Origin: Spirochaetota bacterium | GTDB taxonomy: Bacteria; Spirochaetota; UBA4802; JAGODF01 | Length of the DNA stretch: 64,000 nt | Direction of reading: 5' to 3' | Assembly (NCBI GenBank): GCA_036846345.1 | Contig: DAIUCD010000005.1 | Location: forward strand, 110,155-174,154 | Part shown: piece after piece, positions 6,765 through 55,436 of the stretch | Numbering within the stretch: position 1 is the stretch's first letter | Layout of the letters: the number at the start of each line of letters is the position of its first letter | The notes under the pieces: model-generated | Seen by the model: the letters and a program-made list of their open reading frames with translations, nothing else | Databases searched by the model: none | Told to the model about the DNA's origin: nothing | Translations under genes and position numbers: made by a program

Positions 6765-7577
6765 TCAGATATCGGGAAACACAGGTTTCTTCTTCTGAAG
6801 GAATGCCGACACGCCATGAAAACACTCTCCTGAGATGATGAGAGCAACCGCGCGGTCCGATTCCTCGGCCAGGGACTCGTTGTAGGTCCGGTTCCTGCTC
6901 TCCCGCAGGAGCGCCAGGGAGTGGCGGATCGCCTGCGGGCCGTTGCCGGCGATGGCCCGGGCCATCGCAACAGCTTCCCCGAGCGCAAGGCCGCGTTCGC
7001 ATATCCTGCTTACCAGTCCCATAGACAGGGCCTCCTCGGCTCCTACACGGCGTCCTGTGAGCACCAGGTCGGCGGCCCTGGAGGCTCCCACGAGACGCGG
7101 AAGCGCGGCGCCGCCGCCGTGATCCGGCATGAGGCCCAGGCTCACCTCGGAATAGCAGATAAAGGCACCCCGGACCATGACCCTGAGGTCACACCGTACA
7201 GCCAGCTCCGCACCTCCGCCGAAGGCGTTTCCGTTCAGGGCGGCGATGGTCGGCACAGGGAGCGAGCAGAAAGCGTCGATGACCTCCCGTATCCTGCTGA
7301 TGGCCTCTCTCGCCGGGACCTCGTCCTTTGCAGTGACTGCGTCGATGAGTCGTTTCATCATGGGATTGTCCGGCTGGACATCGAAACCCGCGCTAAAAGA
7401 CCTGTCGCCGCTTCCGGTGATGACGATTGCCCGAGGGGTGGCTTTGCGAAGTTCCCTGGTAACCTCCTCCAGAAGGGTCAGCATCCTGTCGTTAAAGGAG
7501 TGGTGCCTGTCGGGGCGGTCGAGGGTGACTACCGCGATGTTATCAATTCGATCAAGGGTGATGTTTCCGTCGTTCAT
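6765..7577 (-). CDS. enoyl-CoA hydratase/isomerase (crotonase family)
   Basis: ALNGNAFGGGAELAVRCDLRV oxyanion-hole/catalytic region; 270 aa. Confidence 0.9.
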   Translation of the reverse strand: MNDGNITLDRIDNIAVVTLDRPDRHHSFNDRMLTLLEEVTRELRKATPRAIVITGSGDRSFSAGFDVQPDNPMMKRLIDAVTAKDEVPAREAISRIREVIDAFCSLPVPTIAALNGNAFGGGAELAVRCDLRVMVRGAFICYSEVSLGLMPDHGGGAALPRLVGASRAADLVLTGRRVGAEEALSMGLVSRICERGLALGEAVAMARAIAGNGPQAIRHSLALLRESRNRTYNESLAEESDRAVALIISGECFHGVSAFLQKKKPVFPDI

Positions 7578-7649
7578 ATACTCTCCTCCCGTTATGGATT
7601 GCCGTGTACCCGAAACGCATGTGTCCCTCCGGGGCTCATGCGTCTATGG

Positions 7650-8657
7650 TCAGGACCGGTCTTTCAGAGTGACAACGTTCCTTCCGCGGTGTCGTCCGGC
7701 CTTCATGAGGGATAATACATCTTCCAGGCCATCCAGACCGATCTCATCTGCAAGTTCGTCAAGCCAGGGGAACTTCCAATCCCCGGCAAGATGTCCCCAG
7801 ACCTCCCTCCTTAGGGGCATGGGACAGTTCTGTGAGTCAATACCGAAGAGGGATACCCCGCGCAGGATGAAGGGATATACTGTCAAAGCGAGGTCGGGTG
7901 ATAGGACGTTGCCGCAACAGGTAACACCCCCCCCCGCTATGGTTGACTTGATGGCGTAGGTCAGCACCGGTCCCCCCACCGTGTCGATGCACCCCGCGAA
8001 GCGTTCCTTAAGCAGAGGCCGGTCGGTCACATCGGCGGCCTCATCTGAAGTCACAATCGATTTGGCGCCGCACTTAATCAGCAGGTCCGGTGCGTCCGCC
8101 GGTCCCTGAAGGGCGGCGATAGAATAGCCGAGGTGTGACAGGATGGAGACCGCTATACTCCCAACGCCGCCAGCAGCGCCTGTAACCAGAATTGGGCCGC
8201 GGTCGGGACTGCGCAGCCATCCCAGCAGGCGGTGTACAGAGAGACCAGCGGTAAGACCTGCGGTCCCGAAAATCATACTCTCACGAAGCGTCAATCCCGC
8301 TGGTTTTGGTACAGCCCACGCAGCGGGAACCCGTATGTACTGACCAAATCCACCGGAGGTGTTCATACCGAGGTCGTAGCTCGTGACTATAACCTCGTCA
8401 CCCAGTTTGAACGGGCCGTCTCCGCAGGAGACGACGATTCCCGCCGCGTCAATGCCGGGCGTGTGAGGATAGTTTTTCGTCACGCCCCGGTTGCCTGTTG
8501 CTGAGAGCATGTCCTTGTAGTTAAGCGACGAGTAGTGGACTTCCACGAGCAGGTCGCCTGCGGGCAGGTCATCAATGGTCCGCATCTCGATCTTCCGCAT
8601 AAAGGATTTATCCTCATTTTCCCGTACGACAAGGGCCTTGAACTGTTTTTGTATCAT
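7650..8657 (-). CDS. MDR-family NADPH-dependent oxidoreductase (YhdH/AcuI acrylyl-CoA reductase / quinone oxidoreductase type)
   Basis: KALVV...LLVEVHYSSLNYKD...TPGIDAAGIVV N-terminus typical of the YhdH subfamily; GGVG nucleotide motif; GGAGG RBS. Confidence 0.85.
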   Translation of the reverse strand: MIQKQFKALVVRENEDKSFMRKIEMRTIDDLPAGDLLVEVHYSSLNYKDMLSATGNRGVTKNYPHTPGIDAAGIVVSCGDGPFKLGDEVIVTSYDLGMNTSGGFGQYIRVPAAWAVPKPAGLTLRESMIFGTAGLTAGLSVHRLLGWLRSPDRGPILVTGAAGGVGSIAVSILSHLGYSIAALQGPADAPDLLIKCGAKSIVTSDEAADVTDRPLLKERFAGCIDTVGGPVLTYAIKSTIAGGGVTCCGNVLSPDLALTVYPFILRGVSLFGIDSQNCPMPLRREVWGHLAGDWKFPWLDELADEIGLDGLEDVLSLMKAGRHRGRNVVTLKDRS

Positions 8658-8723
8658 GATTCCTCCTTATAGGTCATAATGGATGATGCGATGTCAATGT
8701 ACCGGTGCGTATTAACGGCTATG

Positions 8724-9326
8724 TTATACGGAAACGTCATCTCCGCGTTGAATATCCTGCAGCGTCAGGATGAGGGATGCGATGGTCGTGTTCAGGTTAT
8801 TACGGGAATGGTCGAGATTGTAGATCACGCAGGCCCCCAGCAGTCCCGTGAAGATGATTTCCGTCACCCGGGCCGTGTCCGCCTCGGGCTTTGTGAATGC
8901 CGCTTCCTTTCCCTCATCAAGGAGACGCTGTATCATGCGTTGAAGCCTCGTGAAGCCCTCGTTCACCTCTGCTGCAAGCTCCGGGTTCTGGCCGGCCAGC
9001 TCCACGGCAAAGGTGACGAAGATGCATCCCCCGGGAAATGTATGGGAGTCGGTAAGGTAAAGGTCGCGGTAGTTTTCCAGGAGCTTTTGCAGCCGTTTCA
9101 GGGGGTTCCCGATCTCATCCAGCCCCGCCAGGTTTCTTTCGCGCCAGATCTTCCTGGCTCTCGAGAGGGCGGCGGTAAAGAGCTCCTCCTTCGTCTTAAA
9201 ATGGTTGTAGAAACCGCCCTTCGATGTCCCGGCAGCGGAGATGATCTCCGTGGTGGAGGTGCTTGCATACCCTTTGAGGGAAAAAAGCTTCAGGGCTTCG
9301 TCGATGATTCGATCTTTCAGTGTCAT
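8724..9326 (-). CDS. TetR/AcrR family transcriptional regulator
   Basis: N-terminal HTH (ALKLFSLKGYASTSTTEIISAAGTSKGGFYNHFKTKEELF). Confidence 0.9.
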   Translation of the reverse strand: MTLKDRIIDEALKLFSLKGYASTSTTEIISAAGTSKGGFYNHFKTKEELFTAALSRARKIWRERNLAGLDEIGNPLKRLQKLLENYRDLYLTDSHTFPGGCIFVTFAVELAGQNPELAAEVNEGFTRLQRMIQRLLDEGKEAAFTKPEADTARVTEIIFTGLLGACVIYNLDHSRNNLNTTIASLILTLQDIQRGDDVSV

Positions 9327-11360: not shown

Positions 11361-12443
11361 ATGGAAGCCCTTATCGGCATCGGAATTGGAATCACCTATT
11401 TCGGATTCGGGCTATGTCTTCTGCAGGCCCTGGAGCGGATACTGGAATCGCGCCGATGGGCGGTGCCGAGGGTTTTCTTCTATATTTTCAACAGCATCAT
11501 CATACTGGGGACAGGGCTCATTGCCGACGGGGTACCTCTTCGGGAGCCGGCCGCGCTGATCCTCTTCCCATCGTCCCTGGTGATCATCGGACCGCTTAAC
11601 CTCTTTTATTATCACTCGCTGCTCTATCCGGCCCGGCCCATCCCGTACCGTACCTGGCTTCATATGGTTCCCTTCCTGTTCAGCCTGGCCGCGGAGATAT
11701 GGTTTCAGGGGCAGACCCTGTCCTTCCGGCGGGAGTTCCTGGCGGCCTTTTTTCGTGATCCCGCGGGGCACGGCATGTTCTGGCCTCTCACGCTCATGGC
11801 CCTCCATGTGCTCGTCTATATGATCTATATCGCCAAGGTGTTTCTTATGGATCTGGGCTTCCGAAGTTCCCGCAGGGAATTCCGTTTCATCGGGTCCATC
11901 GGCGTATCGGTGCTCTTCGTCATCGCCCTGCTGTATACAGGGGTCGTTCGATCATCACCCCTCCTCTTTATTGCCGGGGGTGTCCTAAATGTGATGATCC
12001 ATGTCTACATCTATCTGGGGACACGGCTGTTCCCCCAGTTCTTTTCCTCGCTTAAAATCACCCTGGAAAAAAAGGGCTACGAGCGGTCCATGCTCTCCGG
12101 GCTCAACAAGGAGCTGATCGGACGGAAACTGATGAAGCTGATGGAGGAGGACAGGCTCTTCCTAGACTGTGACATCAGCCTGGCCTCGGTGGCCCGAGAG
12201 CTGTCTCTCACGCCTCATCAGCTGTCGGAGCTTCTGAACGGGCACCTGAAGACGGGCTTTAACGATTTCATCAACCGCTACCGGGTGGAAGAGGCCCGGA
12301 GGCTTCTCAGGGAAGGTCATGAGGCCAATATTACCTCCATCTGTTACCGGGTCGGATTTAACTCCAAATCCACCTTTAATGCGGCCTTCAAGCGGATCAC
12401 GGGATGCACACCCCGGGATTATCGGGAGATGCCTGCGGAGTAA
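11361..12443 (+). CDS. AraC-family transcriptional regulator with N-terminal multi-pass membrane domain
   Basis: ~230 aa hydrophobic N-terminal segment with several predicted TM helices, then C-terminal AraC HTH (ICYRVGFNSKSTFNAAFKRITGCTPRDYR). Confidence 0.85.
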   Translation: MEALIGIGIGITYFGFGLCLLQALERILESRRWAVPRVFFYIFNSIIILGTGLIADGVPLREPAALILFPSSLVIIGPLNLFYYHSLLYPARPIPYRTWLHMVPFLFSLAAEIWFQGQTLSFRREFLAAFFRDPAGHGMFWPLTLMALHVLVYMIYIAKVFLMDLGFRSSRREFRFIGSIGVSVLFVIALLYTGVVRSSPLLFIAGGVLNVMIHVYIYLGTRLFPQFFSSLKITLEKKGYERSMLSGLNKELIGRKLMKLMEEDRLFLDCDISLASVARELSLTPHQLSELLNGHLKTGFNDFINRYRVEEARRLLREGHEANITSICYRVGFNSKSTFNAAFKRITGCTPRDYREMPAE

Positions 12444-12566
12444 GTCCGGGAATTTGTGCGGATTTATAAGATCGGTCGACAGGTCCCTCGAGAAATGATA
12501 CATTCCTCTTGCGGTCACGAGGATTTCCCTTCCGCCGCGACGATATCAACGACAAGGAGTCATCCC

Positions 12567-13157
12567 ATGATGTTTCCGTCAATTTCCGGGGAGGAGAGCG
12601 CCTTCCTCAAATCCCTGCGCCTGCCGCCGGTGTCCCAGATCGGGATCATCGTGCCGGACCTGGCCAGAGCGGCCCGTTATTACGGCCTTCTGCTCAATAT
12701 CAAGAGATGGTATCATCCGCCAATCCGTGAAGCCGAGTGTGCCTACCGGGGAAAGCCCGTGGATCAGAGCCTGGAGATCGCGGTGGGATACAGCGGTGGG
12801 ATTCAAATCGAACTGATTCATCAGGAGTGCTCGGAGGAGAATATCTATAACGCCTTGCTCGGCAGGGGGGGCGGGGGCCTCCACCACCTGGGGGTGTCAG
12901 TGGGGGATATCGACCGACGGATGAAACTTCTCACGGGGGCCGGCCTTCGCCCTCTGCAGAGCGGGGTGATCCGTTTCGGCCGGGGTGGGGTGACCCGGTA
13001 TGTCTATCTGGATACCCGGGAACAGGCGGGCTTCATCCTGGAGCTGATCGAAACCCGGGCCTTCGGAATCAACCTGGGAATGCCGGAATGGGTCATGCGC
13101 CTGGGATTGCTCACAGGGGACACGGTGCCCCTGAAGATCCCCTCACAGGAGCAATGA
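12567..13157 (+). CDS. VOC (glyoxalase/bleomycin-resistance/dioxygenase) family protein
   Basis: Start chosen at the internal ATG after an AGGAG RBS; IGIIVPDLARAARYY and HHLGVSVGDIDRRMKLL paired beta-alpha-beta-beta-beta motifs. Confidence 0.65.
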   Translation: MMFPSISGEESAFLKSLRLPPVSQIGIIVPDLARAARYYGLLLNIKRWYHPPIREAECAYRGKPVDQSLEIAVGYSGGIQIELIHQECSEENIYNALLGRGGGGLHHLGVSVGDIDRRMKLLTGAGLRPLQSGVIRFGRGGVTRYVYLDTREQAGFILELIETRAFGINLGMPEWVMRLGLLTGDTVPLKIPSQEQ

Positions 13158-13158
13158 G

Positions 13159-14142
13159 ATGAAAATTCTGGTAACCGGCGCAACGGGATTCATCGGCTCC
13201 GTTCTCGTAAGGGAGCTTGCGGCAAAAGGGAATACGGTCAGGGCCCTGGCGTTGGCGGGAGAGAACACGTCCCTTCTGGATCGGGCGGGGATTGAGGTCC
13301 GGCGGGGCGATTTGAACGTCCGGGGAAGCCTCCGGGGGATATGTGACGGTATCGATGTCATCTTCCACTGCGCCGCCCGGGTGACCGACTGGGGCACAAA
13401 ACGGCAGTTTTATCGGGCTATTCTGGATGCGACCCAAAACCTTCTCGATGAGGCCCGGGGCCAGGCGTGCCGCTTTGTATATGTCAGCTCCATCGCGGCC
13501 CTGGGCATGGGGCGACATCTCAGGGGGGCAAAGGAGTCCGATGCTCCGCAATGGTCAGGAGTCCCGTACAACGATGCCAAAGCGGACACCGAGAGGCTCG
13601 TCCGGGAATTTCATGACCGTGGGGATATCTCCTGTACCGTTGTCCGCCCTGCCAATGTGACCGGGCCGGGGAGTGTCTGGGTAAGGGATATCCTGGACCA
13701 TATGAGCGGCTTCCTTGGTCTGCCGCTTATCGACGGGGGCCGTTACAGCTCCAGCTTCGTCTATGTGGATAGCCTGGTGGACGGCATGATACGGGCGGGC
13801 ACCCGGGAGAAAGCCGCCGGGAAGACCTACCATTTCCGCGATGACTGGAAGGTTTCCTGGGAAAAATACCTGAAGGACCTGGGGGCCTTTATCGGGAAGA
13901 GACCCCGGGGAAATTACCCCTTCCGCCTGGCATGGGGGATGGGGATGATCATGGAAAGGATCTGCAATCCTCTGCACCTGCGACCGTCAGTTACCCGGCT
14001 GGCGGTGGGAGTCATGGGCAGGGATAACGATGTGGATACGTCGCTGGCGAAAGCCGATCTGGAATGGAACACGACGACTCCCTACGAGGAAGCGCTGGAA
14101 AAAACGGGTCAATGGATACGGAGCCTATACAGGGTTCCGTGA
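13159..14142 (+). CDS. NAD-dependent epimerase/dehydratase family (SDR-extended) protein
   Basis: MKILVTGATGFIGSVLVREL Rossmann motif; start overlaps the upstream stop (ATGA). Confidence 0.85.
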   Translation: MKILVTGATGFIGSVLVRELAAKGNTVRALALAGENTSLLDRAGIEVRRGDLNVRGSLRGICDGIDVIFHCAARVTDWGTKRQFYRAILDATQNLLDEARGQACRFVYVSSIAALGMGRHLRGAKESDAPQWSGVPYNDAKADTERLVREFHDRGDISCTVVRPANVTGPGSVWVRDILDHMSGFLGLPLIDGGRYSSSFVYVDSLVDGMIRAGTREKAAGKTYHFRDDWKVSWEKYLKDLGAFIGKRPRGNYPFRLAWGMGMIMERICNPLHLRPSVTRLAVGVMGRDNDVDTSLAKADLEWNTTTPYEEALEKTGQWIRSLYRVP

Positions 14143-14182: not shown

Positions 14183-14548
14183 ATGAGGTTCTCGATCTTG
14201 TTATTTGTGCTGTACCGCATTCTCAGAAGGGCCGCCAGAAAAAACCGGGCTTACGGGAATTACATCGGTTCCATACACAGCGTCCGGATCATGATCAAGA
14301 CGGAAAAGGGCGGCCGGGGTCGGCTTTTTCTCTTCGACAGGGGAACGGTGACGAGCCGGCGGGGAAGCGGCCATGCCTATGACGCTGCGATTGTATGGGC
14401 CGATGCCGGAACCGCCTTTCGGGTGATGTCCTCCCGGAGCGACGAGGCGGCCTTTCTGGCGGCTGCGGCGGGGAAGATGAAGCTCGACGGCATGGCCTTC
14501 TTCGCCCAGTGGTTCAACGACGGGGTTAAAATCGCCATGCCCGGTTAA
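14183..14548 (+). CDS. SCP2 sterol-carrier-like domain protein
   Basis: C-terminal AAAAGKMKLDGMAFFAQ resembles the SCP2 signature; 121 aa. Confidence 0.65.
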   Translation: MRFSILLFVLYRILRRAARKNRAYGNYIGSIHSVRIMIKTEKGGRGRLFLFDRGTVTSRRGSGHAYDAAIVWADAGTAFRVMSSRSDEAAFLAAAAGKMKLDGMAFFAQWFNDGVKIAMPG

Positions 14549-14655
14549 GCCCTAAAGGCGGTTGAGAGGGGGATGTTTATGATAACAACGAAAAACCCGC
14601 AGGGCCGGGACGATTGTTTCGAAAACGATATCACGCTTAGTGAAGGAGGATGAAT

Positions 14656-16329
14656 ATGGCAGCGATCAACGGAGGACATCTGGTTGGAAAGTACCTCAGG
14701 GAGGTGGAGAAGGTCGATATCGTTTTCGGCCTCTCGGGGGGGCATATTGAATCGATACTCGACGGATTCACTGAGTACGACATTCGGACTATAGACGTCC
14801 GTCACGAACAGGCGGCGGCTATGATGGCCCACGCCTGGTCAGTCTATACTGGAAGGACTGGTGTCTGCTTCGTGACGGCGGGGCCCGGTTTTACCAACGC
14901 GCTGACAGGGATAGCCAACGCTTATCTGGATAACGCGCCGATGGTCGTGCTCTGCGGGAGACACCCTCTTCGCGATGACCTGAAGGGAGCCCTCCAGGAA
15001 ATCAACCAGATCGACATGGTGAAACCCGTAGTCAAATGGGCAGCTACCTGCTATGATACCCGGAGGATCCCCGAGTACCTGTCCATCGCCTTCCGGCAGG
15101 CCGTGGAGGGACGGCCCGGACCGGTTTTCCTCGAACTGCCCCCGGATATCCTCAATATCACGGTGGAGGAGGCCGGGGTTCCCATGCCCGTACGTCCGGC
15201 ACGCCGGTACACGGTGCATCCCGATGACAGTGATCTCTCTGCTGCGGCGGATCTGATCAACAGCGCCCGCAAGCCCTTCTTCGTCGGAGGTACCGGAGTG
15301 GGCTTCAGCGTCTGCGGTTCCTGCCTGGCCGGGTTTATGGAAAAGACGGGAATGCCTTTTCAACTGCTCAATTACGGGAGGGGTGAGCTTCCTGACAAGC
15401 ATCCGCTCTCCCTTACCGAAACAGGCAGCATTGGGCTCATGACATCGATTCAGCAGGCCGATGTCATCGTTGCCGCCGGTCTCCGGTTCAACTGGATACT
15501 GCAGTCCGGGGCGATCATTCCTCCTTCAGCCAAGGTGGTACGGATCGATATCGATCCCCATGAAATAGACCGTAACCGCATGGCGGACGTCGGTCTTGTG
15601 GGAGACGTCGGATCGGTCCTCTCCCAGCTCACACCGCTGTTGAACCAGAGGGATCACAGCGGATGGATCGAAACGCTGAGAGCGGCGTCGAGTTCCCTGC
15701 TGGATTACGAAATCCGCATGAGGGCTAATCCCTCCGATCCCATTCATCCCCTGAGGCTCGTAGCCCGAATACAGGAATTTGCCGGAGAGGATGCGCTCTA
15801 CATCGCCGATGGCGGCGACACGGTCTATTTTGGCATAACGGGTTTTTCCTCCCGTCATCGGGCTGGGGTCATCGGGACCGCTTCGGGTCTGCTGGGATGC
15901 CTGGGTACGGGAATCCCCTTCGCCATGGCAGCCAAGCTCGCCAGGCCCGAGAGGAAAGTGATCCTCCTGAACGGCGACGGGTCCATGGGATTCAATGCCA
16001 TGGAATTCGATACTATGGTTCGTCACAATATCCCGATCGTCTGTGTCGTCAATAACGACTGCGCCTGGGGAATGATCAAACACAGCCAGGAACTCTCTCT
16101 GGGCAAGGAGCGTCTTCAATGTTCCGAGCTGGGCCTCCGGCATTATGAGAAGATGGTGGAGGGACTGGGGGGATACGGCGAGCTGGTGACCAGCGACGAT
16201 GAGATCGTGCCGGCGCTGGAAAGGGCTGTGGCTTCGGGGAAACCCGCCTGTATCAACGTGATCACTGATCCCACGGTCACCAGTCCTGCCACGCCGCTGT
16301 TCTATCAGTCCCTCAAGATGGACCAGTGA
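14656..16329 (+). CDS. thiamine-diphosphate-dependent enzyme (acetolactate synthase / oxalyl-CoA decarboxylase / 2-hydroxyacyl-CoA lyase superfamily)
   Basis: RHEQAAAMMA (Pyr domain), ThDP-binding GDGSMGFNAMEFDTMVRHNIPIVCVVNNDCAWGMI; start at the ATG 6 nt after AGGAGG. Confidence 0.85.
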   Translation: MAAINGGHLVGKYLREVEKVDIVFGLSGGHIESILDGFTEYDIRTIDVRHEQAAAMMAHAWSVYTGRTGVCFVTAGPGFTNALTGIANAYLDNAPMVVLCGRHPLRDDLKGALQEINQIDMVKPVVKWAATCYDTRRIPEYLSIAFRQAVEGRPGPVFLELPPDILNITVEEAGVPMPVRPARRYTVHPDDSDLSAAADLINSARKPFFVGGTGVGFSVCGSCLAGFMEKTGMPFQLLNYGRGELPDKHPLSLTETGSIGLMTSIQQADVIVAAGLRFNWILQSGAIIPPSAKVVRIDIDPHEIDRNRMADVGLVGDVGSVLSQLTPLLNQRDHSGWIETLRAASSSLLDYEIRMRANPSDPIHPLRLVARIQEFAGEDALYIADGGDTVYFGITGFSSRHRAGVIGTASGLLGCLGTGIPFAMAAKLARPERKVILLNGDGSMGFNAMEFDTMVRHNIPIVCVVNNDCAWGMIKHSQELSLGKERLQCSELGLRHYEKMVEGLGGYGELVTSDDEIVPALERAVASGKPACINVITDPTVTSPATPLFYQSLKMDQ

Positions 16330-16347: not shown

Positions 16348-17562
16348 ATGAAAGCGCTGATACTGCATGCCGAGCCCTGGCGTTACGGGCTTCTTCAGGG
16401 ACTGAGAGCTTTGAGCACGAAATTCTGCTATACCGGCCCGCTTTCCTCGTTGAAACTGGCAGATGTTCCGGAACCGGCGCTACCCTCTCCGGAATGGCTC
16501 AGGATCAGGACCCGGCTTTGCGGCTTCTGTGGCAGCGACCTGAACCTGATCCTGATGAAGGATTCCCCCACCGCTATGCCCTTCACCTCCTTCCCCTGCG
16601 TGCCCGGCCATGAGATCTGCGGCCAGATCGTCGAAAAAGGGCGCGAGGCAGGTGATTTTAAGCCGGGGGATCTGGTTGTCGTATCCCCCCAGCTCAACTG
16701 CGAAACCCGGGGCATCCATCCCTCCTGTTCCAGCTGCGCCGGCGGACACACCTCCAACTGCGAAAACTATGCTGAGGGCAGCCTGGCACCGGGACTGTTT
16801 ACGGGCATATGCCGGGACATCAACGGGGGATTTGCCCCTTACCTGGTGGCTCATCGAAGCCAGCTCTTCCGTGTCCCGGCCGGGACGACACCGGAATCGG
16901 CAGTTCTCACCGAACCCCTGGCCGTAGCCCTTCAGGCGGTGCTGGACAACCGGCCGCACGATGAGGAAAGTATTCTGGTAATCGGAGGTGGTGTGATCGG
17001 CCTCCTGGTGGTCCGGGTCATCCGGTCCCTGGGCTGTCAATGCCGCATTACCGTCGCAGATCCGTCCTCCCTTGCGACGGAGTATGCCGTTAACAGCGGG
17101 GCGGATAAGGTCATTTCCGGGAATATCATCGATGCAGCCGTGGAGATTACGGGGGGGCGCACCTATAAACCCCTTCTGGGGGAGCCTATCGTGATGGGGG
17201 GATTTCACCGCATCTACGATACCGTGGGATCCCGGCAGACCCTTCACCGCGCCATGCGGATTCTGGCAACGGCGGGCGTCCTCTCCGTGCTGGGCATAGG
17301 GGGGCATGTGAAACTTGACCTGACGCCGCTATGGCTTAAGTTGCAGTCCATACGAGGCTGCTACGGGTACGGGTGGCATAAGACCGGCAGGACTATGAAT
17401 CCCGTTTTCGGGATGGCCCTGGATATGATAGCCTGGAAAAAAGTTTCCGTAATGGATATGCTGACTCATACCTATCCCCTGGAGGAATATCGAACCCTGA
17501 TAGATGTAAATCTCAATAAAGGGAAGAACCGTGCCATGAAAACGGCGTTTCTATTTGATTAA
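16348..17562 (+). CDS. zinc-dependent alcohol dehydrogenase (MDR family)
   Basis: GHEICGQIVEKG zinc-ligand motif, GGGVIGLLVV Rossmann motif. Confidence 0.85.
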   Translation: MKALILHAEPWRYGLLQGLRALSTKFCYTGPLSSLKLADVPEPALPSPEWLRIRTRLCGFCGSDLNLILMKDSPTAMPFTSFPCVPGHEICGQIVEKGREAGDFKPGDLVVVSPQLNCETRGIHPSCSSCAGGHTSNCENYAEGSLAPGLFTGICRDINGGFAPYLVAHRSQLFRVPAGTTPESAVLTEPLAVALQAVLDNRPHDEESILVIGGGVIGLLVVRVIRSLGCQCRITVADPSSLATEYAVNSGADKVISGNIIDAAVEITGGRTYKPLLGEPIVMGGFHRIYDTVGSRQTLHRAMRILATAGVLSVLGIGGHVKLDLTPLWLKLQSIRGCYGYGWHKTGRTMNPVFGMALDMIAWKKVSVMDMLTHTYPLEEYRTLIDVNLNKGKNRAMKTAFLFD

Positions 17563-17698: not shown

Positions 17699-18532
17699 AT
17701 GATCAACTTCGACGGTATTCAGTCACGGGTTCATTTCGTATCCAGGTACATCACCGAGATGAGGGTCAAGGCTCTTGAGGAGATCAGACCTCTCCGGGAA
17801 AACAAGTTTCTTCTGGGGCTCTATCAGGTTTACAAGTGGATAATCTATATCCCCTTCCTCGTCGTGAGCACGACGGCTCTGGGGACCGCTGCAACGGTGC
17901 TGGCCATCGTCTTCGGCGGCAGGATCGCCTCCCTCATGGGGGTCCTTTGGTCCAAGCTCAACAGCTACATGACACCAATGTTCGTGGATGTCATCGGTAA
18001 AGAGAAAATTGATCGACGCCAGTCCTATGTCATTGTGGCCAATCATCAGAGCCAGTTCGATATCTTCGTCATTTACGGATGGATGCCTGTGGATTTCCGC
18101 TGGGTGATGAAAATTCAGTTGAGGAAGGTGCCTTTCCTGGGCTACAGCTGTTACCGGATCGGGCATGTATTCATCGACCGGTCCCATCCCGATAAGGCCA
18201 AGGCCAGCATCAACGAAGCCAGGGAGCGTATCAAGGGCGGAACCTCCATAATGTTCTTCCCCGAAGGGACCAGGAGCGATGACGGACAGCTCATCGAGTT
18301 TAAGAAGGGAGCCTTCAAGTTTGCCATGGACATGGGTCTGACGGTACTGCCCGTGACCATCGTGGGGACCCGGAATATCCTGCCGGCCAGATCGATGAAA
18401 CTCTTTCCCGGCTATGCCAGGCTCGTCATCCACGATCCCATCGACATCAGGGGTTATACGGAAGAGAACATGGATGAGCTCGTGAGGACAGCACGGTACC
18501 GCATTGATCAGGGTCTTAGGCAGTATTCCTGA
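17699..18532 (+). CDS. plsC: lysophospholipid (1-acyl-sn-glycerol-3-phosphate) acyltransferase, PlsC family
   Basis: NHQSQFD (HX4D) and FPEGTRS motifs; N-terminal TM. Confidence 0.8.
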   Translation: MINFDGIQSRVHFVSRYITEMRVKALEEIRPLRENKFLLGLYQVYKWIIYIPFLVVSTTALGTAATVLAIVFGGRIASLMGVLWSKLNSYMTPMFVDVIGKEKIDRRQSYVIVANHQSQFDIFVIYGWMPVDFRWVMKIQLRKVPFLGYSCYRIGHVFIDRSHPDKAKASINEARERIKGGTSIMFFPEGTRSDDGQLIEFKKGAFKFAMDMGLTVLPVTIVGTRNILPARSMKLFPGYARLVIHDPIDIRGYTEENMDELVRTARYRIDQGLRQYS

Positions 18533-19381: not shown

Positions 19382-20314
19382 ATGGATTTTACGAAATCTC
19401 TGTTCCGCAAAGAATTCTTCATAAAGGCCTTTCAGGTGATCTCGGGTCTGATTATTCTACCCCGAATAAGTCCTCTGTCCCGGCTTTTTGCCGCAAGGAA
19501 TGACGCCCTTGTGGTCATCAGGGGGGCCGATCTTTCCAAGGGCACCATTGAGAATATGGTGAAAAAGGGTTTCGAGGCCATGGGAGGCATCGACCGGTTC
19601 ATCAAGAAAGGAATGAAAGTGGTCATCAAGCCCAATATAGGCTGGAACTCGCCTCCGGAGAGAGCGCATAATACCAACCCGTATATTGTGGAGACGGTGG
19701 CCCGGATGTGCCGGGAGAGGGGCGCCCGGGTGCAGGTCTTCGACCGCACTTGCAACAAGGCGAGCCTCTGTTACGTGAACAGCGGGATCCGCAAGGCGGC
19801 CAAGAATGCCGGCGCCGCTATCGAATATATCGATTCCCGCCGTTACCGCAAGGTTCCCGTTAAGAAGGGCCTCAAGCAGAAATACCTCTACGTCTATGAG
19901 GATATGATCAAGGCGGATTTCGTCATAAATATCCCCATCGCCAAGCATCACAGCCTGGCTCAGCTCACCCTGTCCATGAAGAATCTTATGGGTGTCCTGG
20001 GGGGCAACCGGGGGGATTATCATCATAACATGGACGAGAACATCGTGGATTTTACCAAGGCTATACGGACGGACCTGACGATCATGGATGCCACCCGCAT
20101 CCTTACGGATCACGGTCCCAGCGGGGGGACGCTGGATGATGTGAAGGTGATGAAGACGATCATCTTCGGCAAAAATCCCGTGACCGTGGACGCTTACACG
20201 ACTACGCTCTTCGGCAGGGAGCCCCGCTCCATCGGATACATCAAGCTGGCGGGAGCCGAGGGGATGGGGGAGATCAATGTGAAGAAGATGCGTATTACCC
20301 ATAAAACCGTATGA
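19382..20314 (+). CDS. DUF362 domain protein
   Basis: VVIKPNIGWNSPPERAHNTNPYIVETVARMCRERGA matches the conserved DUF362 core. Confidence 0.7.
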   Translation: MDFTKSLFRKEFFIKAFQVISGLIILPRISPLSRLFAARNDALVVIRGADLSKGTIENMVKKGFEAMGGIDRFIKKGMKVVIKPNIGWNSPPERAHNTNPYIVETVARMCRERGARVQVFDRTCNKASLCYVNSGIRKAAKNAGAAIEYIDSRRYRKVPVKKGLKQKYLYVYEDMIKADFVINIPIAKHHSLAQLTLSMKNLMGVLGGNRGDYHHNMDENIVDFTKAIRTDLTIMDATRILTDHGPSGGTLDDVKVMKTIIFGKNPVTVDAYTTTLFGREPRSIGYIKLAGAEGMGEINVKKMRITHKTV

Positions 20315-21945
20315 AGAGCCCCCGCTGGTCACAACTGCGTGCCCTTGCTCAACTGGCTCTCTGGCTGGCGTTCCTCCTTTTCATCGTGACGCTTCGCTTT
20401 CCCGTGGAGAACGAGGGTGCCTATGCCCTGGTGCCGCGCCTCTCGCCTCATCTCGCACTGACGGCCTCTCTATCGACCCGGGAAGCTCTGACGGTCTTTT
20501 ATCCCGCCCTGATCGTTCTGATCCTGACTCTGGTTTTGGGGCGTTTCTTCTGCGGATGGATCTGCCCTCTGGGGATCACCCTGGACGGGACCGACAGGAT
20601 CGTAAAAACCGGCGGGAACCATCTGCAGTTCGGTAAAAGCGGAGAGAAGGATCTGCGGTACGGGAAGTACCTGGTCCTCACGGGGTCCCTGATCCTCGCC
20701 CTGGCGGGATTTCAGGCGGCGGGGCTTATCGATCCCCTCTCACTGGTTGTGCGCAGCTACGGTCTTGTTGTGTATCCCTATCTGGATTTTTCTCTCAAAG
20801 GTATATTTCAGGCCCTGGGGCATATCCCGGGGGTATCCCACGCGTCGGAACCCCTGTTTTCCCTGCTGAAGGGGTCGTTGCTGGATCTCAATCCCATACT
20901 CTTCTCCGGTCATATCACCGTGCTGCTCTTTTTCCTTGTTCTTCTCCTCCTTTCGCGGATGGCCCGGCGCTTCTGGTGCCGGTCGCTCTGTCCCCTGGGG
21001 GCCGTGCTGGCCCTGACCTCGCGTTTTTCCTTCTTTCGAAGGAAAGTATCCGTGGAAAAATGCACCCATTGCCTGAAGTGCCAGCGGGACTGCCGCATGG
21101 GGGCCATCGAGGGGAAGGGCCTTGCCACCCGGGAAGAGGAATGCATCAAGTGTTTCGAATGCCTGCAGTCCTGCTCCTATGACGCCATTTCCTTCGGCTT
21201 CGGCAATCCCTTCGCCAAAGAGCAGGCCGTTCCCCGGGAGGAGGGGGATGAGAAGGCGGAGCCGGAGGCCTCACCGGGAGGGCTGACGCGGAAAAGGCTG
21301 CTGGCGGGGGTCGTCTCCTCCGCGGCGCTGGTGCCGGTTCTTAAAATCAACGCCCAGTACCGCGCCGATTTCTCCCATCTCATCAGGCCCCCCGGCGCCC
21401 TGCGGGAAGAGGATTTCCTGGACCGGTGCATCCGCTGCGGCGAGTGCATGAAGGCCTGTCCCACCAACGGTTTGCACCCGGCGCTTTTGGAAGCGGGTGT
21501 GGAAGGGCTCTTTACACCGCGCCTGATCCCCCGGCTGGGCTGGTGTGAAAAGAACTGCAATCTCTGCACCCTGGTCTGTCCCACCGGCGCCCTCAAGAGG
21601 CTCGAACTGGCGGACAGGGAGACGACGGTGATCGGGACAGCCTATTTTATTCATGATCTCTGCATCCCCTGGTCGGAAAACCGGGAATGCCTGGTTTGCG
21701 AGGAGATGTGTCCCACCCAGACGAAGTCCATACGCTTCCGGGAGGAGACGGTGCTGGACAGGAAGAACCGGACGGTGCGGATCAAGCGTCCCTACGTGGT
21801 GGAGGATATCTGCATCGGCTGCGGGATCTGCGAAAACAAATGTCCGGTCCCGGGAAGCGCGGCCATAAGGGTGAGAACCCCCAAGAACGTGCCCCTCTCG
21901 GCCCTCACATCCCAGAAGGGCGAAGGCGGCTATGGAGGGGAATGA
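20311..21945 (+). CDS. membrane-bound polyferredoxin (NapH/MauN-like N-terminus plus six 4Fe-4S ferredoxin motifs)
   Basis: TM helices with FFCGWICPLG, then CxxCxxCxxxCP repeated six times; start overlaps the DUF362 stop (ATGA). Confidence 0.8.
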   Translation: MKSPRWSQLRALAQLALWLAFLLFIVTLRFPVENEGAYALVPRLSPHLALTASLSTREALTVFYPALIVLILTLVLGRFFCGWICPLGITLDGTDRIVKTGGNHLQFGKSGEKDLRYGKYLVLTGSLILALAGFQAAGLIDPLSLVVRSYGLVVYPYLDFSLKGIFQALGHIPGVSHASEPLFSLLKGSLLDLNPILFSGHITVLLFFLVLLLLSRMARRFWCRSLCPLGAVLALTSRFSFFRRKVSVEKCTHCLKCQRDCRMGAIEGKGLATREEECIKCFECLQSCSYDAISFGFGNPFAKEQAVPREEGDEKAEPEASPGGLTRKRLLAGVVSSAALVPVLKINAQYRADFSHLIRPPGALREEDFLDRCIRCGECMKACPTNGLHPALLEAGVEGLFTPRLIPRLGWCEKNCNLCTLVCPTGALKRLELADRETTVIGTAYFIHDLCIPWSENRECLVCEEMCPTQTKSIRFREETVLDRKNRTVRIKRPYVVEDICIGCGICENKCPVPGSAAIRVRTPKNVPLSALTSQKGEGGYGGE

Positions 21946-32148: not shown

Positions 32149-35100
32149 GTGCCATCATCCCTGCCAGGCCAGGAGCATGTCATGGACATCACCGGCGAGA
32201 TCATCCAAAAGCGTTACAGGATCACCAGCCCCATTGCTGAGGGAGGCATGAGTTATGTCTTCATGGCTGAGGATCTGGAGAAGACCGGAAGCACCGTGGC
32301 CGTGAAGATCCTGAAACGGAAGGGGACATCAAGAAGGATCGAGGATGTGATTCGGTTCCATTCTGAAGCAACCACAATTTCCCGCATAAACCATCCCAAT
32401 ATCATTAAAATCCATGAGGTCGGGGAGACCGACTCTCCCTCGATGCCGGGGATGCACTATATCGTGATGGAGTACATCCGCGGAGGAAATCTCTTCGAGA
32501 TGGTATCTCGGAAGAGGTTTCCAGATTGGAAGACCGCCCTCGTGATCATTTCAGGCCTTTGCCGTGCTCTGAGCCATATCCACGATAACGGTATCATACA
32601 CCGGGACATCAAGCCGGGAAACATCATGATTTTACAGAATGGAGGCATGCTGAAGACGGATCAGATAAAACTGATCGATTTCGGTCTGGCTCAACTGAAG
32701 GAATTTGCGGACATGGGAGATATCGAGGAGGTCTTAGGAACTTTTAGCTACATGTCTCCCGAGCAGACGGGACTTGTGAAGAAGAACGTAGATGAGCGAA
32801 GCGATCTCTATTCACTCGGCGTCGTCTTCTACCAGCTTCTCACCGGTGAACTTCCTTTCAAGGGTGAGGATGTGAGTTCTCTTATCCACCAGCATGTGGC
32901 CCAGATGGCCCGGCCACCGGCGGATCTAAACCGCGATTTGCCCGTAGTGGTAAGCAAGATGGTGATGAAACTCATGGAAAAGGACCAGGAGAAGCGCTAT
33001 CAGAGCGCGGAGGGGCTGCTGAAGGACGTAGAAAAGGTTTTAAACGACCGCTATGATTTCATGCCGGGGCAGGAGGACAGGAGAGTAAGGCTAACCTTTC
33101 GGACAGGACTCATCGGACGCGAGCAGGAGATGAAGAGCCTTAGGGATCTGGCGGACCGGGCCATAAGCGGCGAGGGCCGGGCGGTCTTTATTGGGGGCGA
33201 AGCCGGGAGAGGGAAAACCCGTCTGCTGGAGGAACTGAAAGGATATGTCATCTCCCTTGGCGGTGTTTTCCTGACAGGAAAGTGTTTTGCCGGCGAGAAT
33301 AAGACGCCATACGGACCTTTCCGTGATCAGCTGAGTTTCTATCTCAAGCTTTTCAACAGGTATACGGAAAACAAGAAACAGGCTGTAAAAAAACAGATAC
33401 AGAACCGGATTGGCGGACTCGGCAGGGTCATTCTCCAGCTGAGCAAGGAAATGGAAGTTCTGCTGGGCGATTGTCCTGAGCTGGTAGGTCTTGAGCCGGA
33501 CCGTGAAAACGAGCGGTTCCTCATCGCCTCGGGTCAATTTTTTCAACATATCGCCGAAATCGAAAAGCTCATGGTCCTCGTCTTCGATGACCTCCAGTGG
33601 TCGGATGAGGGCAGCTTTACCCTGATGAGGGAGATTATAGGACAGTTCGATAGGTCTCGGATACTCATCGTGGGCACTTACCGGGATAATGAACTCTACG
33701 AGTATCACACACTCCAGAAGATGATCAACCTTTACGTCCATGACAAGCGAGTCGAGTTGATGAGCCTGGGGCTATTTGACCGGCATAAAATGGAAGGCTT
33801 TATCTCCAGTTTGCTCTTCACGGACGATGAGTCCATAAAGGATATCTCCGAGTTCATACTGAACAAGAGCCGGGGAAATCCATTTTTCGCCCTGGAGATA
33901 CTGAAGCAGCTGGTTAATGAAAATGCACTCTTTTATGCGGGAAACCGTTGGAATATCAGTTATGATGTCTTGGGGACCATCGAGATATCCCCTACTGTAA
34001 TCGATGTTATCCTGAACCGCATATCCCAGCTGGATGAACGGGAGATGAAGGTTCTCTCACTCGCTTCTGTGATCGGAAGAAGGTTTACATTGGATCTGCT
34101 TTTTAGGCTGCTGGATTACGAAAAGGGAGATATCGTCAGTATGATCGACAAGGCCCTGCATCTGCAGTTCCTGGAAACGGAGCCTGATGAAAAAGGGATA
34201 TTATATTTCGCTCATGATAGGATCAAGGAAGCCTTTTATTCCCGGCTCAGGACGGAGGAGAGGAAGCAGAGTCATCTTCATATTGCAAAAATGATGGAGC
34301 GCAATTACAAAGAGGATGAGGAATCCCTCCTTTTCGATCTTGCACATCATTATATTGAGGGTAATAATCCTGAGAAATCCCTTACTTACGCCTTCCCCGC
34401 AGGTGTAAAGGCAAAAGAAAAATATGCCAACGAGGAGGCGATCAAGTATTATTCCCTCGTGCTCAAGCTGCTTGGGATATCTCTCTCGGGGCTTGCAGAA
34501 GACAAGAGGGAGATGTGGATTCGGACTAGAGAGGACCTGGGAGAAATCTATCAGACGATCGGAAAAAACGACGAGGCAATCGCTCTTTTCAACGAGCTTC
34601 TCGATAATTCTATCGAACTGCTGAAAAAGGCCGACTACAACAAAAACATAAGCCGTGCCTATTTCAAAAAAGGGGATTGGAAAAATTGCGAGGAATACGG
34701 CCGTCGGGGTCTCGAAATCCTGGGGGAAAGACTGCCAACTGGTACCTTGAGGGTCGTTCCGAGTGCCCTGAGAGAGCTGTTCGTCCATTTCGTTCAGGAG
34801 CTGTTCCACTCCCTCTTTACCGGCATGAGGAATAGGGATAAGAAAGATCAAATTATCGTCTGGTTCTATCTTACGCTCAACTGGATGTATATCCTGAGCG
34901 ATATAAAGAAATTCATCCGCTCCATCATGCGAATGCTCAACATCTCCCAACGGCGACTGGGCATATCCCGGGAGTTGGGAATCAGCTTGGGGGCCTATGC
35001 CAGCCTGCAGATGGCGTTGCCCCTCTTCGCAAGATCCATCCGCAATCAAAACCGGGCCATTGAGATCAAGAAGCTCTTTAAGGATGAGTGGGGAATAGCC

Positions 35101-38507: not shown

Positions 38508-39416
38508 ATGTCTGACATCCGTTTCGATGGACTGGTTGCGGTCATAACAGGCAGCGGCAGGGGATTGGGGCGCAGCTATGCCCTCGAATTCGCAAGGAGG
38601 GGGGCCAAGGTCGTAGTAAACGATCTGGGGGGCTCCAGGGACGGCGGCGGAGGGGACCACAGCGCCGCCGATGATGTCGTGAAGGAAATTAAAAACGGCG
38701 GCGGTGAAGCCGTGGCTAACTACGATTCTGTTTCCACTGTCGATAGCGGGCAGAAGATCATTCAGGCAGCCCTGGACAGTTTCGGGAGCGTCGATATCCT
38801 GGTAAACAACGCCGGAATCGTAATGGACCGGAGCATCGTCAAGATGACGGAAGACGCCTGGGATACGGTGATCAACGTACACCTGAAGGGGGCCTTCTGT
38901 GTGACGAAACCGGCTTTTGCCGCCATGAAGGAAAAGGGTTTCGGACGCATAATCATGACCGCGTCCGGTGCAGGACTGTATGGAAATTTTGGACAATCCA
39001 ATTACAGCGCGGCCAAAATGGCGCTCGTCGGCCTGATGAATACCCTCTCAATCGAAGGGGGGAAGTACAATATCAAATGCAATACCATCGCGCCGGTGGC
39101 GGCATCACGGATCACTGAGGATGTGCTTCCTCCGGAAATCTATAAAAAGCTGAAGCCTGAGTTCATCGTCCCGCTGGTGCTCTATCTCGCGTCCAGGGAG
39201 AATCAGGATACCAGTATGATCTTCAACTGCGCCGGCGGATGGTACAGTCGGACGGCGGTCATGTGCGCCCCGGGGATAGTCCTGGGTGACGGGCAGAGAG
39301 AGGTGAAACCGGAAGAGATCGCAGCCAACTGGCAGAAAATTACAAATCTGGAGGATGCCAGGGTCCTATCCAGCATCGTGGAATCCTTTTCCTTCATGGC
39401 ACCGATCCTTTCCTGA
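38508..39416 (+). CDS. SDR-family (3R)-hydroxyacyl-CoA dehydrogenase, peroxisomal MFE-2 (HSD17B4) N-terminal-domain type
   Basis: From memory of the human HSD17B4 N-terminus, strongly collinear: RFDG-V-V-TG-G-GLGR-YAL-FA-RGA-VVVNDLGG…YGNFGQ-NYSAAK…NTIAP. Confidence 0.85.
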   Translation: MSDIRFDGLVAVITGSGRGLGRSYALEFARRGAKVVVNDLGGSRDGGGGDHSAADDVVKEIKNGGGEAVANYDSVSTVDSGQKIIQAALDSFGSVDILVNNAGIVMDRSIVKMTEDAWDTVINVHLKGAFCVTKPAFAAMKEKGFGRIIMTASGAGLYGNFGQSNYSAAKMALVGLMNTLSIEGGKYNIKCNTIAPVAASRITEDVLPPEIYKKLKPEFIVPLVLYLASRENQDTSMIFNCAGGWYSRTAVMCAPGIVLGDGQREVKPEEIAANWQKITNLEDARVLSSIVESFSFMAPILS

Positions 39417-55164: not shown

Positions 55165-55436
55165 AATTCTCTAATAAAAAATAATTGCAAAAACCCGCGA
55201 ATGCCGTGTAGGTAATAATTTTTGAACCTGTTTACACAGGTGGGTTTCCTCATGTTGAATTCAACCTTCTCTCGTGAAAGAGTATGGTTTTCTTGAACAG
55301 ATTTAGAATCCCTTTTCATATAATATTGGTACAAAAATGTTGATACCTATCTCGAGCATCGCAGGCTATACTCAAATAAACAACAGAGAAGACATAATTT
55401 CAACTATTTTTTACAAGTTAAACGGGGATGTGAGTC

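Follow-up and report, generated by a model that had tools for sequence, protein, structure and literature searches.

The window examined here, a stretch of 64,000 nucleotides from a Spirochaetota bacterium (GTDB lineage Bacteria; Spirochaetota; UBA4802; JAGODF01; GenBank assembly GCA_036846345.1, contig DAIUCD010000005.1, positions 110,155 to 174,154 of the forward strand), encodes an enzyme that depends on thiamine diphosphate (ThDP), together with a small protein that we call S120. Both open reading frames (ORFs) were confirmed on the plus strand, S120 at 14183..14548 (121 residues, preceded by the ribosome-binding site AAGGAG) and the ThDP enzyme at 14656..16329 (557 residues). The frame of the latter is open from 14650, a ribosome-binding site (GAAGGAGG) is located 8 nt upstream of 14656, and an identical database protein (P0001) also has 557 residues, making 14656 the likely start rather than 14650. 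Immediately downstream lies a gene for a 404-residue zinc-dependent dehydrogenase of the medium-chain dehydrogenase/reductase (MDR) superfamily, of the polyol/threonine/butanediol type (16348..17562, plus strand; ADH_N and ADH_zinc_N domains).

A preliminary description of this DNA had interpreted the first two genes as an SCP2 carrier next to a ThDP-dependent lyase or decarboxylase. We examined the linkage by tblastn in 84 related loci. These belong to different uncultured species, all represented by metagenome-assembled genomes, with host labels of Spirochaetota/Leptospirales, Smithella/Syntrophales, Desulfomonilia, Desulfobacterales, Desulfatiglandales and Bacillota. The pairing proved real, with the SCP2 assignment coming from the family profile: in 83 of the 84 loci the S120 gene directly precedes the ThDP gene, the remaining locus being cut by a contig end, an adjacency far beyond chance. 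The dehydrogenase gene adjoins the ThDP gene in 73 loci. Moreover, the pairwise distances of the three proteins co-vary (Mantel r 0.82-0.85, p 0.001), with those of the dehydrogenase following those of the ThDP enzyme and S120 at r 0.83-0.85. The core genes are thus inherited or transferred together.

Other neighbours are attached more loosely. A short-chain dehydrogenase/reductase (SDR) gene is found beside this core in about half of the loci, and about a third have a gene for a vicinal oxygen chelate (VOC) protein, placed either upstream or downstream of it. When the 1171 ORFs of the 84 loci were clustered all against all, no further widely shared neighbour emerged besides regulators: a TetR protein occurs in 15 loci, one AraC type in 8 and another in 6. 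Genes of the Frc type (formyl-CoA transferase) occur in just two of the 84 loci, and neither an acyl-CoA ligase nor a fatty-acid 2-hydroxylase recurs among them. Likewise, no small subunit of the IlvN/IlvH type is encoded in the window and the 84 loci (1.24 Mb), and no ilv genes lie near the module.

Family placement and active site of the ThDP enzyme

The three domains of the superfamily, PF02776, PF00205 and PF02775, are all present in the ThDP enzyme (E 1e-27 to 1e-38), as are the two motifs quoted in the preliminary description, VRHEQAAAMMAHAW and KGALQEINQIDM, seen in the protein as RHEQAAAMMA and GALQEINQ. In NCBIfam the enzyme stays under every cut-off. Its best match is PRK05858 (414 bits against a cut-off of 587), followed by NF058623, a model for 2-hydroxyacyl-CoA lyase (HACL) of actinobacteria (353 against 600), the acetolactate synthase (ALS) models, which give 260-330 bits and are all missed (TIGR00118, 330 against 538), and the oxalyl-CoA decarboxylase (OXC) model TIGR03254 (240 against 739). 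Among solved structures the ranking is headed by the HACL known as AcHACL (281 bits) and a bacterial HACL/S (265 bits), followed by benzaldehyde lyase (BAL, 263 bits), OXC (223 bits) and ALS (at most 205 bits).

The phylogenetic placement proposed earlier was carried out by neighbour-joining, with bootstrap support computed on splits. As references we used AcHACL, TbHACL/S and OfOXC, assembled from PDB alignments, BAL (identical to 2ag0), human HACL2 (exact look-up), and Oxc, IlvI, IlvB, Gcl and PoxB from the E. coli K-12 genome. The ThDP family is monophyletic with 100% bootstrap, and it is excluded both from the split uniting ALS, Gcl and PoxB (98%) and from the OXC+HACL/S clade (100%). A split joining the family to BAL received 3% support, and one joining it to HACL2, AcHACL and BAL received 28%. 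Because the scores and the tree splits place the family outside the ALS group, the enzyme is, on sequence grounds, best regarded not as an ALS but as belonging to a separate subfamily among the lyases of this superfamily. The side of the superfamily occupied by HACL, OXC and BAL, to which the preliminary description had leaned, is thus supported by the structural scores and the exclusion from ALS, and its own test for refutation, clustering with ALS or the presence of an ALS small subunit, returned neither.

Close relatives of the enzyme are 68-84% identical across phyla. At least 570 relatives were confirmed among GTDB species representatives, and 7151 protein clusters match the enzyme at E<=1e-20. 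In the source databases the homologues are labelled "acetolactate synthase I/II/III large subunit" or "thiamine pyrophosphate-binding protein", of which the former appears wrong, being unsupported by scores, tree or gene context. One spirochaete metagenome-assembled genome carries, a few kilobases from its S120-ThDP-dehydrogenase module, a second, divergent ThDP paralogue (locus L020, 991-2700, minus strand). In the tree this paralogue takes a basal position within the family, and it, too, is without the CoA-binding Arg considered next.

In the crystal structure of AcHACL, the acyl-CoA is held mainly by R273 and R417 (PMC8760513), and the equivalent R260 and R400 of ApbHACL/S are described as "conserved in HACL/Ss" (PMC11271303). 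We counted residue conservation over 80 members of the ThDP family. The first arginine is kept in all five CoA-dependent references (AcHACL, TbHACL/S, OfOXC, EcOXC and HsHACL2); in the window protein the column holds Gly, and 79 of the 80 members show a gap or Gly, within a loop that is longer and of the GxxG type, like that of ALS, Gcl and PoxB. Four of the five references have the second arginine as well, the exception being HACL2 with Ala; the window protein carries Ile at this position, and the family as a whole Leu, Gln, Ile or Phe. Other CoA contacts of AcHACL (Q255, R362 and D561) are likewise not conserved in the family, and both arginines are absent from BAL and ALS as well. Since the residues by which its relatives hold CoA are missing, the enzyme is probably not an alpha-oxidation enzyme.

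The site that handles the substrate hydroxyl is retained. G43, H44, T88 and Q128 of AcHACL, which position the C-beta hydroxyl of the substrate (PMC13327070), correspond to Gly31, His32, Thr76 and Gln116 here and are kept in 79-80 of the 80 members (His32 in 79, Gln116 in 80), as is Leu115; BAL has A28, H29, T73 and Q113 in these columns. The cofactor glutamate, Glu53 (aligned to AcHACL E65), is present in all 80 members. The catalytic E493 of AcHACL is replaced by Ile, as in HACL2, and the Y120/E121 columns of OfOXC hold Leu115/Gln116. His29 of BAL has a catalytic role, and a His at this position is typical of hydroxy-carbonyl lyases, not of ligases that decarboxylate 2-oxoacids. The simplest reading of these residues is that the enzyme would perform alpha-hydroxy-carbonyl lyase or ligase chemistry, in the manner of BAL, with a substrate other than a CoA thioester. 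The proposal of a HACL-like enzyme is upheld as to the family side, and not as to a CoA-dependent HACL: both CoA arginines are absent and the cut-offs are missed.

Comparison with BAL of Pseudomonas fluorescens (2ag0) bears on this reading. The two enzymes share the three-domain ThDP fold at 33.5% identity (254-263 bits), the residues His29, Thr73, Leu112 and Gln113 of BAL recur as His32, Thr76, Leu115 and Gln116, and both have a short C-terminus and lack the CoA-binding arginines. They differ in that the loop at the first arginine is ALS-like in the ThDP family and otherwise in BAL, and in that A480 and T481 of BAL are Met475 and Ile476 here. To our knowledge, BAL has no SCP2-like partner and no known link to a polyol-type dehydrogenase.

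S120, a divergent SCP2-like protein

S120 on its own gives no match in Pfam, even at E=10, and none in NCBIfam, and "SCP2" can therefore not be read directly from the window protein. Its relatives are more informative. The S120 family consists of proteins of about 120 residues that are 50-80% identical across phyla, with 20 invariant columns in an alignment of 36 homologues, and a profile of the family reaches 252 representative clusters in a search of 1.84 billion proteins. Among 73 full-length representatives, 20 individually match PF02036 (SCP2; best E 2.9e-8) and 7 match Alkyl_sulf_C, the SCP2-fold C-terminal domain of alkylsulfatases; the relative P0261, at 23.0 bits, passes the PF02036 gathering threshold, which is 21.3. 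In addition, hhalign aligned the S120 family to human SCP2, whose sequence was verified against PDB 1qnd, over 82 columns (E 9.3e-5, probability 59%), a span that takes in the C-terminal G-K-L/M-K-x-x-G motif (the G-K-L-K-I-x-G region). We accept S120 as a divergent member of the SCP2 family on these sequence-profile grounds, by transitive homology: the assignment is correct only in that sense, because the relatives and the family profile match SCP2 and the window protein does not.

Structure prediction contributed less. AlphaFold2 (AF2) modelled S120 with a pLDDT of 45 from the single sequence and a mean pLDDT of 57 from the 36-sequence alignment; the latter, low-confidence model has the element order H-H-E-E-E-E-H-H, which is compatible with SCP2. 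Foldseek found no significant match of the model in the PDB, the best full-length match being UbiJ-SCP2 (6h6o; TM 0.43), and the S120 profile searched against PDB sequences returned nothing beyond a chance match to CAP (E 1.3).

Compared with the SCP2 family at large (PF02036, including UbiJ/UbiT-type proteins), S120 has the same size and C-terminal G-K-x-K-x-x-G motif, and a predicted element order that agrees. It differs in missing the Pfam model fully, in being far more conserved than a generic carrier, and in being tied to a ThDP enzyme. A literature search for a pairing of SCP2 with a ThDP enzyme found nothing, and we know of no precedent for it.

Elsewhere, S120-like domains are fused to redox enzymes. 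They stand at the N-terminus of proteins of about 420 residues resembling 3-hydroxyisobutyrate dehydrogenase (P0261, P0273, P0296 and P0352) and at the N-terminus of AhtL-like molybdopterin oxidoreductases of the pyrogallol-hydroxytransferase type (P0339, P0342 and P0378), and a more distant free-standing relative sits amid genes for acyl-CoA dehydrogenase, START-domain and enoyl-CoA hydratase proteins. Such arrangements are what would be expected of an accessory domain that presents hydrophobic substrates to oxidoreductases. The contexts of the distant proteins and fusions offer general lipid and redox hints and nothing more specific.

Layout of the module and its surroundings

In the window, the core is preceded on the plus strand by an AraC-family gene (11361..12443), a VOC gene (12567..13157) and an SDR gene (13159..14142). 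The VOC frame opens at 12456; its probable start is Met 12567, taken from a 189-residue homologue in locus L001, and a promoter-like site (12476-12504) lies between the AraC gene and this start. The VOC, SDR, S120, ThDP and dehydrogenase genes are separated by gaps of 1-107 nt with no convincing terminator between them, and the genes from VOC to dehydrogenase would share a single transcript. An Rfam scan found no riboswitch in the cluster. A weak terminator-like site (17531-17548) and, past the dehydrogenase gene, a gap of 136 nt precede a gene for a PlsC-type acyltransferase (17699..18532, plus strand; PF01553, TIGR00530). This gene is probably outside the module: we considered it as a component and rejected it, a homologue being present in 1 of the 84 loci, and there on the other strand.

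The neighbouring enzymes fit alpha-hydroxy-carbonyl chemistry. The nearest NCBIfam and PDB relatives of the zinc dehydrogenase are scyllo-inosose, threonine, galactitol-1-phosphate, (R,R)-butanediol and sorbitol dehydrogenases, an MDR branch that oxidises a secondary alcohol beside another oxygen function; by analogy, such an oxidation is the step that would turn a vicinal diol into an acyloin. The SDR, of the extended type with Epimerase and 3Beta_HSD domains, resembles HpnA, OleD and SdmB in NCBIfam, all under the cut-off, and its PDB matches include sterol-4alpha-carboxylate 3-dehydrogenase; in sequence it is thus similar to the lipid- or sterol-acting enzymes 3beta-hydroxysteroid dehydrogenase, OleD and HpnA. 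The VOC protein, with a Glyoxalase_4 domain, is weakly similar to methylmalonyl-CoA epimerase and glyoxalase, enzymes of enolate or enediol chemistry.

The AraC-family protein is probably the regulator of the module. Its helix-turn-helix domains (HTH_18 and HTH_AraC, residues 278-356) are the only part recognised, and the approximately 250 N-terminal residues read as several hydrophobic helices, not as a soluble ligand-binding domain, which suggests a membrane-embedded sensor. In spirochaete loci the equivalent place is taken by homologues with 48-60% identity, and other loci carry a different AraC protein or a divergently transcribed TetR protein. Regulators of these two types flanking the module suggest that it is induced by its substrate.

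Further genes and features of the window are recorded here as separate observations. Upstream of the module, the minus strand (6765-9326) encodes an enoyl-CoA hydratase, another zinc dehydrogenase of the MDR type and a regulator of the TetR family; homologues of the hydratase and of the TetR protein are found near the module in a few other loci too. Downstream, about 4.7 kb from the ThDP gene, a DUF362 protein is followed by a membrane polyferredoxin (19382-21945, plus strand). A DUF362 gene, with or without a ferredoxin, also lies a few kilobases 3' of the module in several Smithella loci, and further coordinates are L011 13163-15676, L014 11769-12926 (right after the VOC gene) and L024 15393-16424; these proteins may be an occasional redox accessory. 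A signalling protein of 1754 residues (32149-37413, plus strand) combines a Ser/Thr kinase, an AAA_16 ATPase, TPR and GAF domains and a SpoIIE/PP2C phosphatase. The only Rfam match in the window is a full-length 6S (SsrS) RNA (RF00013, 97 bits) at 55188-55370 on the minus strand. The G+C content is about 0.50-0.59 over 1-46000 and about 0.38-0.44 past roughly 46-48 kb, up to 64000; the drop could mark an island, a change to another region of the genome or a join made in assembly.

Proposed chemistry and competing explanations

The explanation that we favour, tentatively and at a little short of an even chance, is that S120, a BAL-like, CoA-independent alpha-hydroxyketone lyase or carboligase, and a diol/acyloin dehydrogenase together form an inducible module for a hydrophobic substrate. 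Such a module would be compact, horizontally mobile and responsive to its substrate, with S120, the ThDP enzyme and the polyol-type zinc dehydrogenase as its core, and with the SDR, the VOC protein and an AraC or TetR regulator often attached. ThDP would attack the carbonyl of an alpha-hydroxyketone (acyloin), the neighbouring hydroxyl being handled by the site formed by His32, Gln116 and Thr76, and the C-C bond would split to give two aldehydes, or form in the reverse reaction. The zinc dehydrogenase would interconvert the acyloin with the matching vicinal diol, and the SDR and VOC proteins, where present, may carry out further ketone/alcohol and enediol-type (epimerase or tautomerase) steps. 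S120 would bind or present a lipid-like substrate of poor solubility, and it may do so as a small subunit permanently attached to the lyase. A hydrophobic diol or acyloin is suggested as the substrate because the SCP2-like partner, the lipid-type SDR, the diol-type dehydrogenase and the VOC protein fit it, and catabolism appears somewhat more likely than biosynthesis.

Several points weigh against this proposal. The subfamily is uncharacterised, and every one of the 84 loci comes from a metagenome-assembled genome. No grouping of the family with BAL, AcHACL or HACL2 reaches 30% bootstrap, and, its sister group being left without support, the BAL-like label stems from a few active-site columns and the absent arginines rather than from phylogeny. 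In NCBIfam the best match is to PRK05858, a protein from mycobacteria that is regarded as a putative HACL (PMC13327070). Human HACL2, too, is devoid of the second arginine, which leaves room for CoA to be bound through other residues or through S120. The S120 model is of low confidence and its fold search non-significant, and a physical complex of S120 with the lyase is putative. Finally, sequence does not tell whether the reaction runs towards cleavage or towards ligation.

A bolder form of the favoured proposal, which we consider improbable, casts S120 as an obligate small subunit that would take over from CoA, as used by HACL, the role of keeping a long hydrophobic substrate at the ThDP site, enabling a hitherto unrecognised CoA- and oxygen-independent C-C cleavage of lipid-like vicinal diols or acyloins in anaerobes. 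Candidate substrates would be long-chain diols, the glycerol end of ether lipids, the polyol side chains of hopanoids and alicyclic diols.

The ThDP enzyme may instead be a biosynthetic carboligase that couples a long-chain aldehyde with a second aldehyde or with a 2-oxoacid after decarboxylation, giving an acyloin that the zinc dehydrogenase and the SDR would reduce to a diol, destined for a membrane lipid or an alpha-hydroxyketone signal; S120 would hold the lipid and, in this window, the PlsC-type acyltransferase encoded after the dehydrogenase would esterify the product. BAL-type and ALS-type enzymes readily catalyse carboligation, the loop that replaces the CoA arginine is of the ALS-like GxxG type, and two reductase-type genes are linked to the module. 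Nevertheless, the acyltransferase has its single homologue among the loci, no aldehyde-generating reductase and no acyl-ACP/CoA reductase is linked to the module, flanking AraC and TetR genes are typical of inducible catabolism, and the His in the column of BAL H29 is the residue expected of a lyase. We therefore regard a biosynthetic role as unlikely.

The idea put forward in the preliminary description, that a true HACL with an SCP2 carrier performs a bacterial alpha-oxidation, shortening its substrate by one carbon and releasing formyl-CoA, seems to us slightly less likely still. It gains from the HACLs being the highest-scoring solved relatives (AcHACL, 7pt1; HACL/S, 8vz* entries), from PRK05858 and the actinobacterial HACL model leading the NCBIfam matches, from the Gly/His/Thr/Gln hydroxyl site held in common with AcHACL, and from human HACL2, which shares the Ile at the E493 position and the loss of the second arginine. 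SCP2 domains, moreover, accompany peroxisomal lipid-CoA enzymes. Set against this are the first arginine, common to all five CoA-dependent references and lost from nearly every family member, and the second, never present; the curated HACL and OXC cut-offs, all missed; and the position outside the OXC+HACL/S clade. The family also differs from AcHACL in having neither its E493 nor its long C-terminal lid. The gene neighbourhood argues in the same direction, for the conserved partners are alcohol and ketone oxidoreductases and a VOC protein, and no formyl-CoA, acyl-CoA ligase or 2-hydroxylase genes are conserved beside them. The MFE-2-type SDR at 38508-39416, pointed out earlier, is separated from the module by 22 kb that contain housekeeping and signalling genes with no relation to it, and falls outside the conserved neighbourhood. 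Neither the CoA-binding residues nor the gene context bears out an alpha-oxidation module.

An activation of acetone or short ketones like that of Desulfococcus biacutus, where formylation of the ketone by a ThDP enzyme yields a 2-hydroxyacyl-CoA, is very improbable. In its favour are the anaerobic Desulfobacterota among the hosts, a ThDP enzyme labelled ALS, and a zinc threonine-dehydrogenase-like protein that acetone induces in D. biacutus. However, the ThDP protein of that organism is of 77.6 kDa and clustered with a B12 mutase, MeaB and 3-hydroxybutyryl-CoA dehydrogenase, none of which recur here, its zinc dehydrogenase belongs to a gene cluster other than that of the ThDP enzyme, and the CoA arginines are absent from the family studied here. 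We rejected the Desulfococcus/Desulfosarcina acetone-activation cluster as a counterpart on account of the different size of the ThDP protein and the obligatory B12 mutase genes.

An ordinary acetolactate or acetohydroxyacid synthase, serving branched-chain amino acids or acetoin and lying beside an unrelated small ORF, is effectively refuted: ALS shares with the enzyme the superfamily, the database label, 260-330 bits in its models, the GxxG loop at the CoA-arginine site and a small protein encoded beside the catalytic subunit, but its equivalog cut-offs are missed widely, the family falls outside its split, IlvN/IlvH and ilv genes are lacking, and the small ORF is conserved and syntenic and encodes an SCP2-like protein, not an ACT-domain regulator.

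The enzyme belongs to a large and highly conserved family that is annotated almost everywhere as acetolactate synthase, apparently wrongly. Its association with S120 indicates that a protein of the SCP2 type can serve as the dedicated genomic partner of a ThDP enzyme, and the fixed grouping of this pair with a dehydrogenase of the diol type marks out a pathway that is unstudied and open to testing. Its hosts, such as Smithella/Syntrophales, Desulfobacterales and uncultured spirochaetes, are dominant organisms of methanogenic digesters, peat, aquifers and sediments. Were the enzyme to cleave or form hydrophobic acyloins independently of CoA, it would give anaerobes a new way of breaking C-C bonds in lipid-like compounds, as well as provide a new scaffold for the biocatalytic carboligation of long-chain aldehydes. 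Should S120 indeed replace CoA in holding the substrate, the module would be, in effect, an anaerobic, carrier-protein-assisted counterpart of alpha-oxidation.

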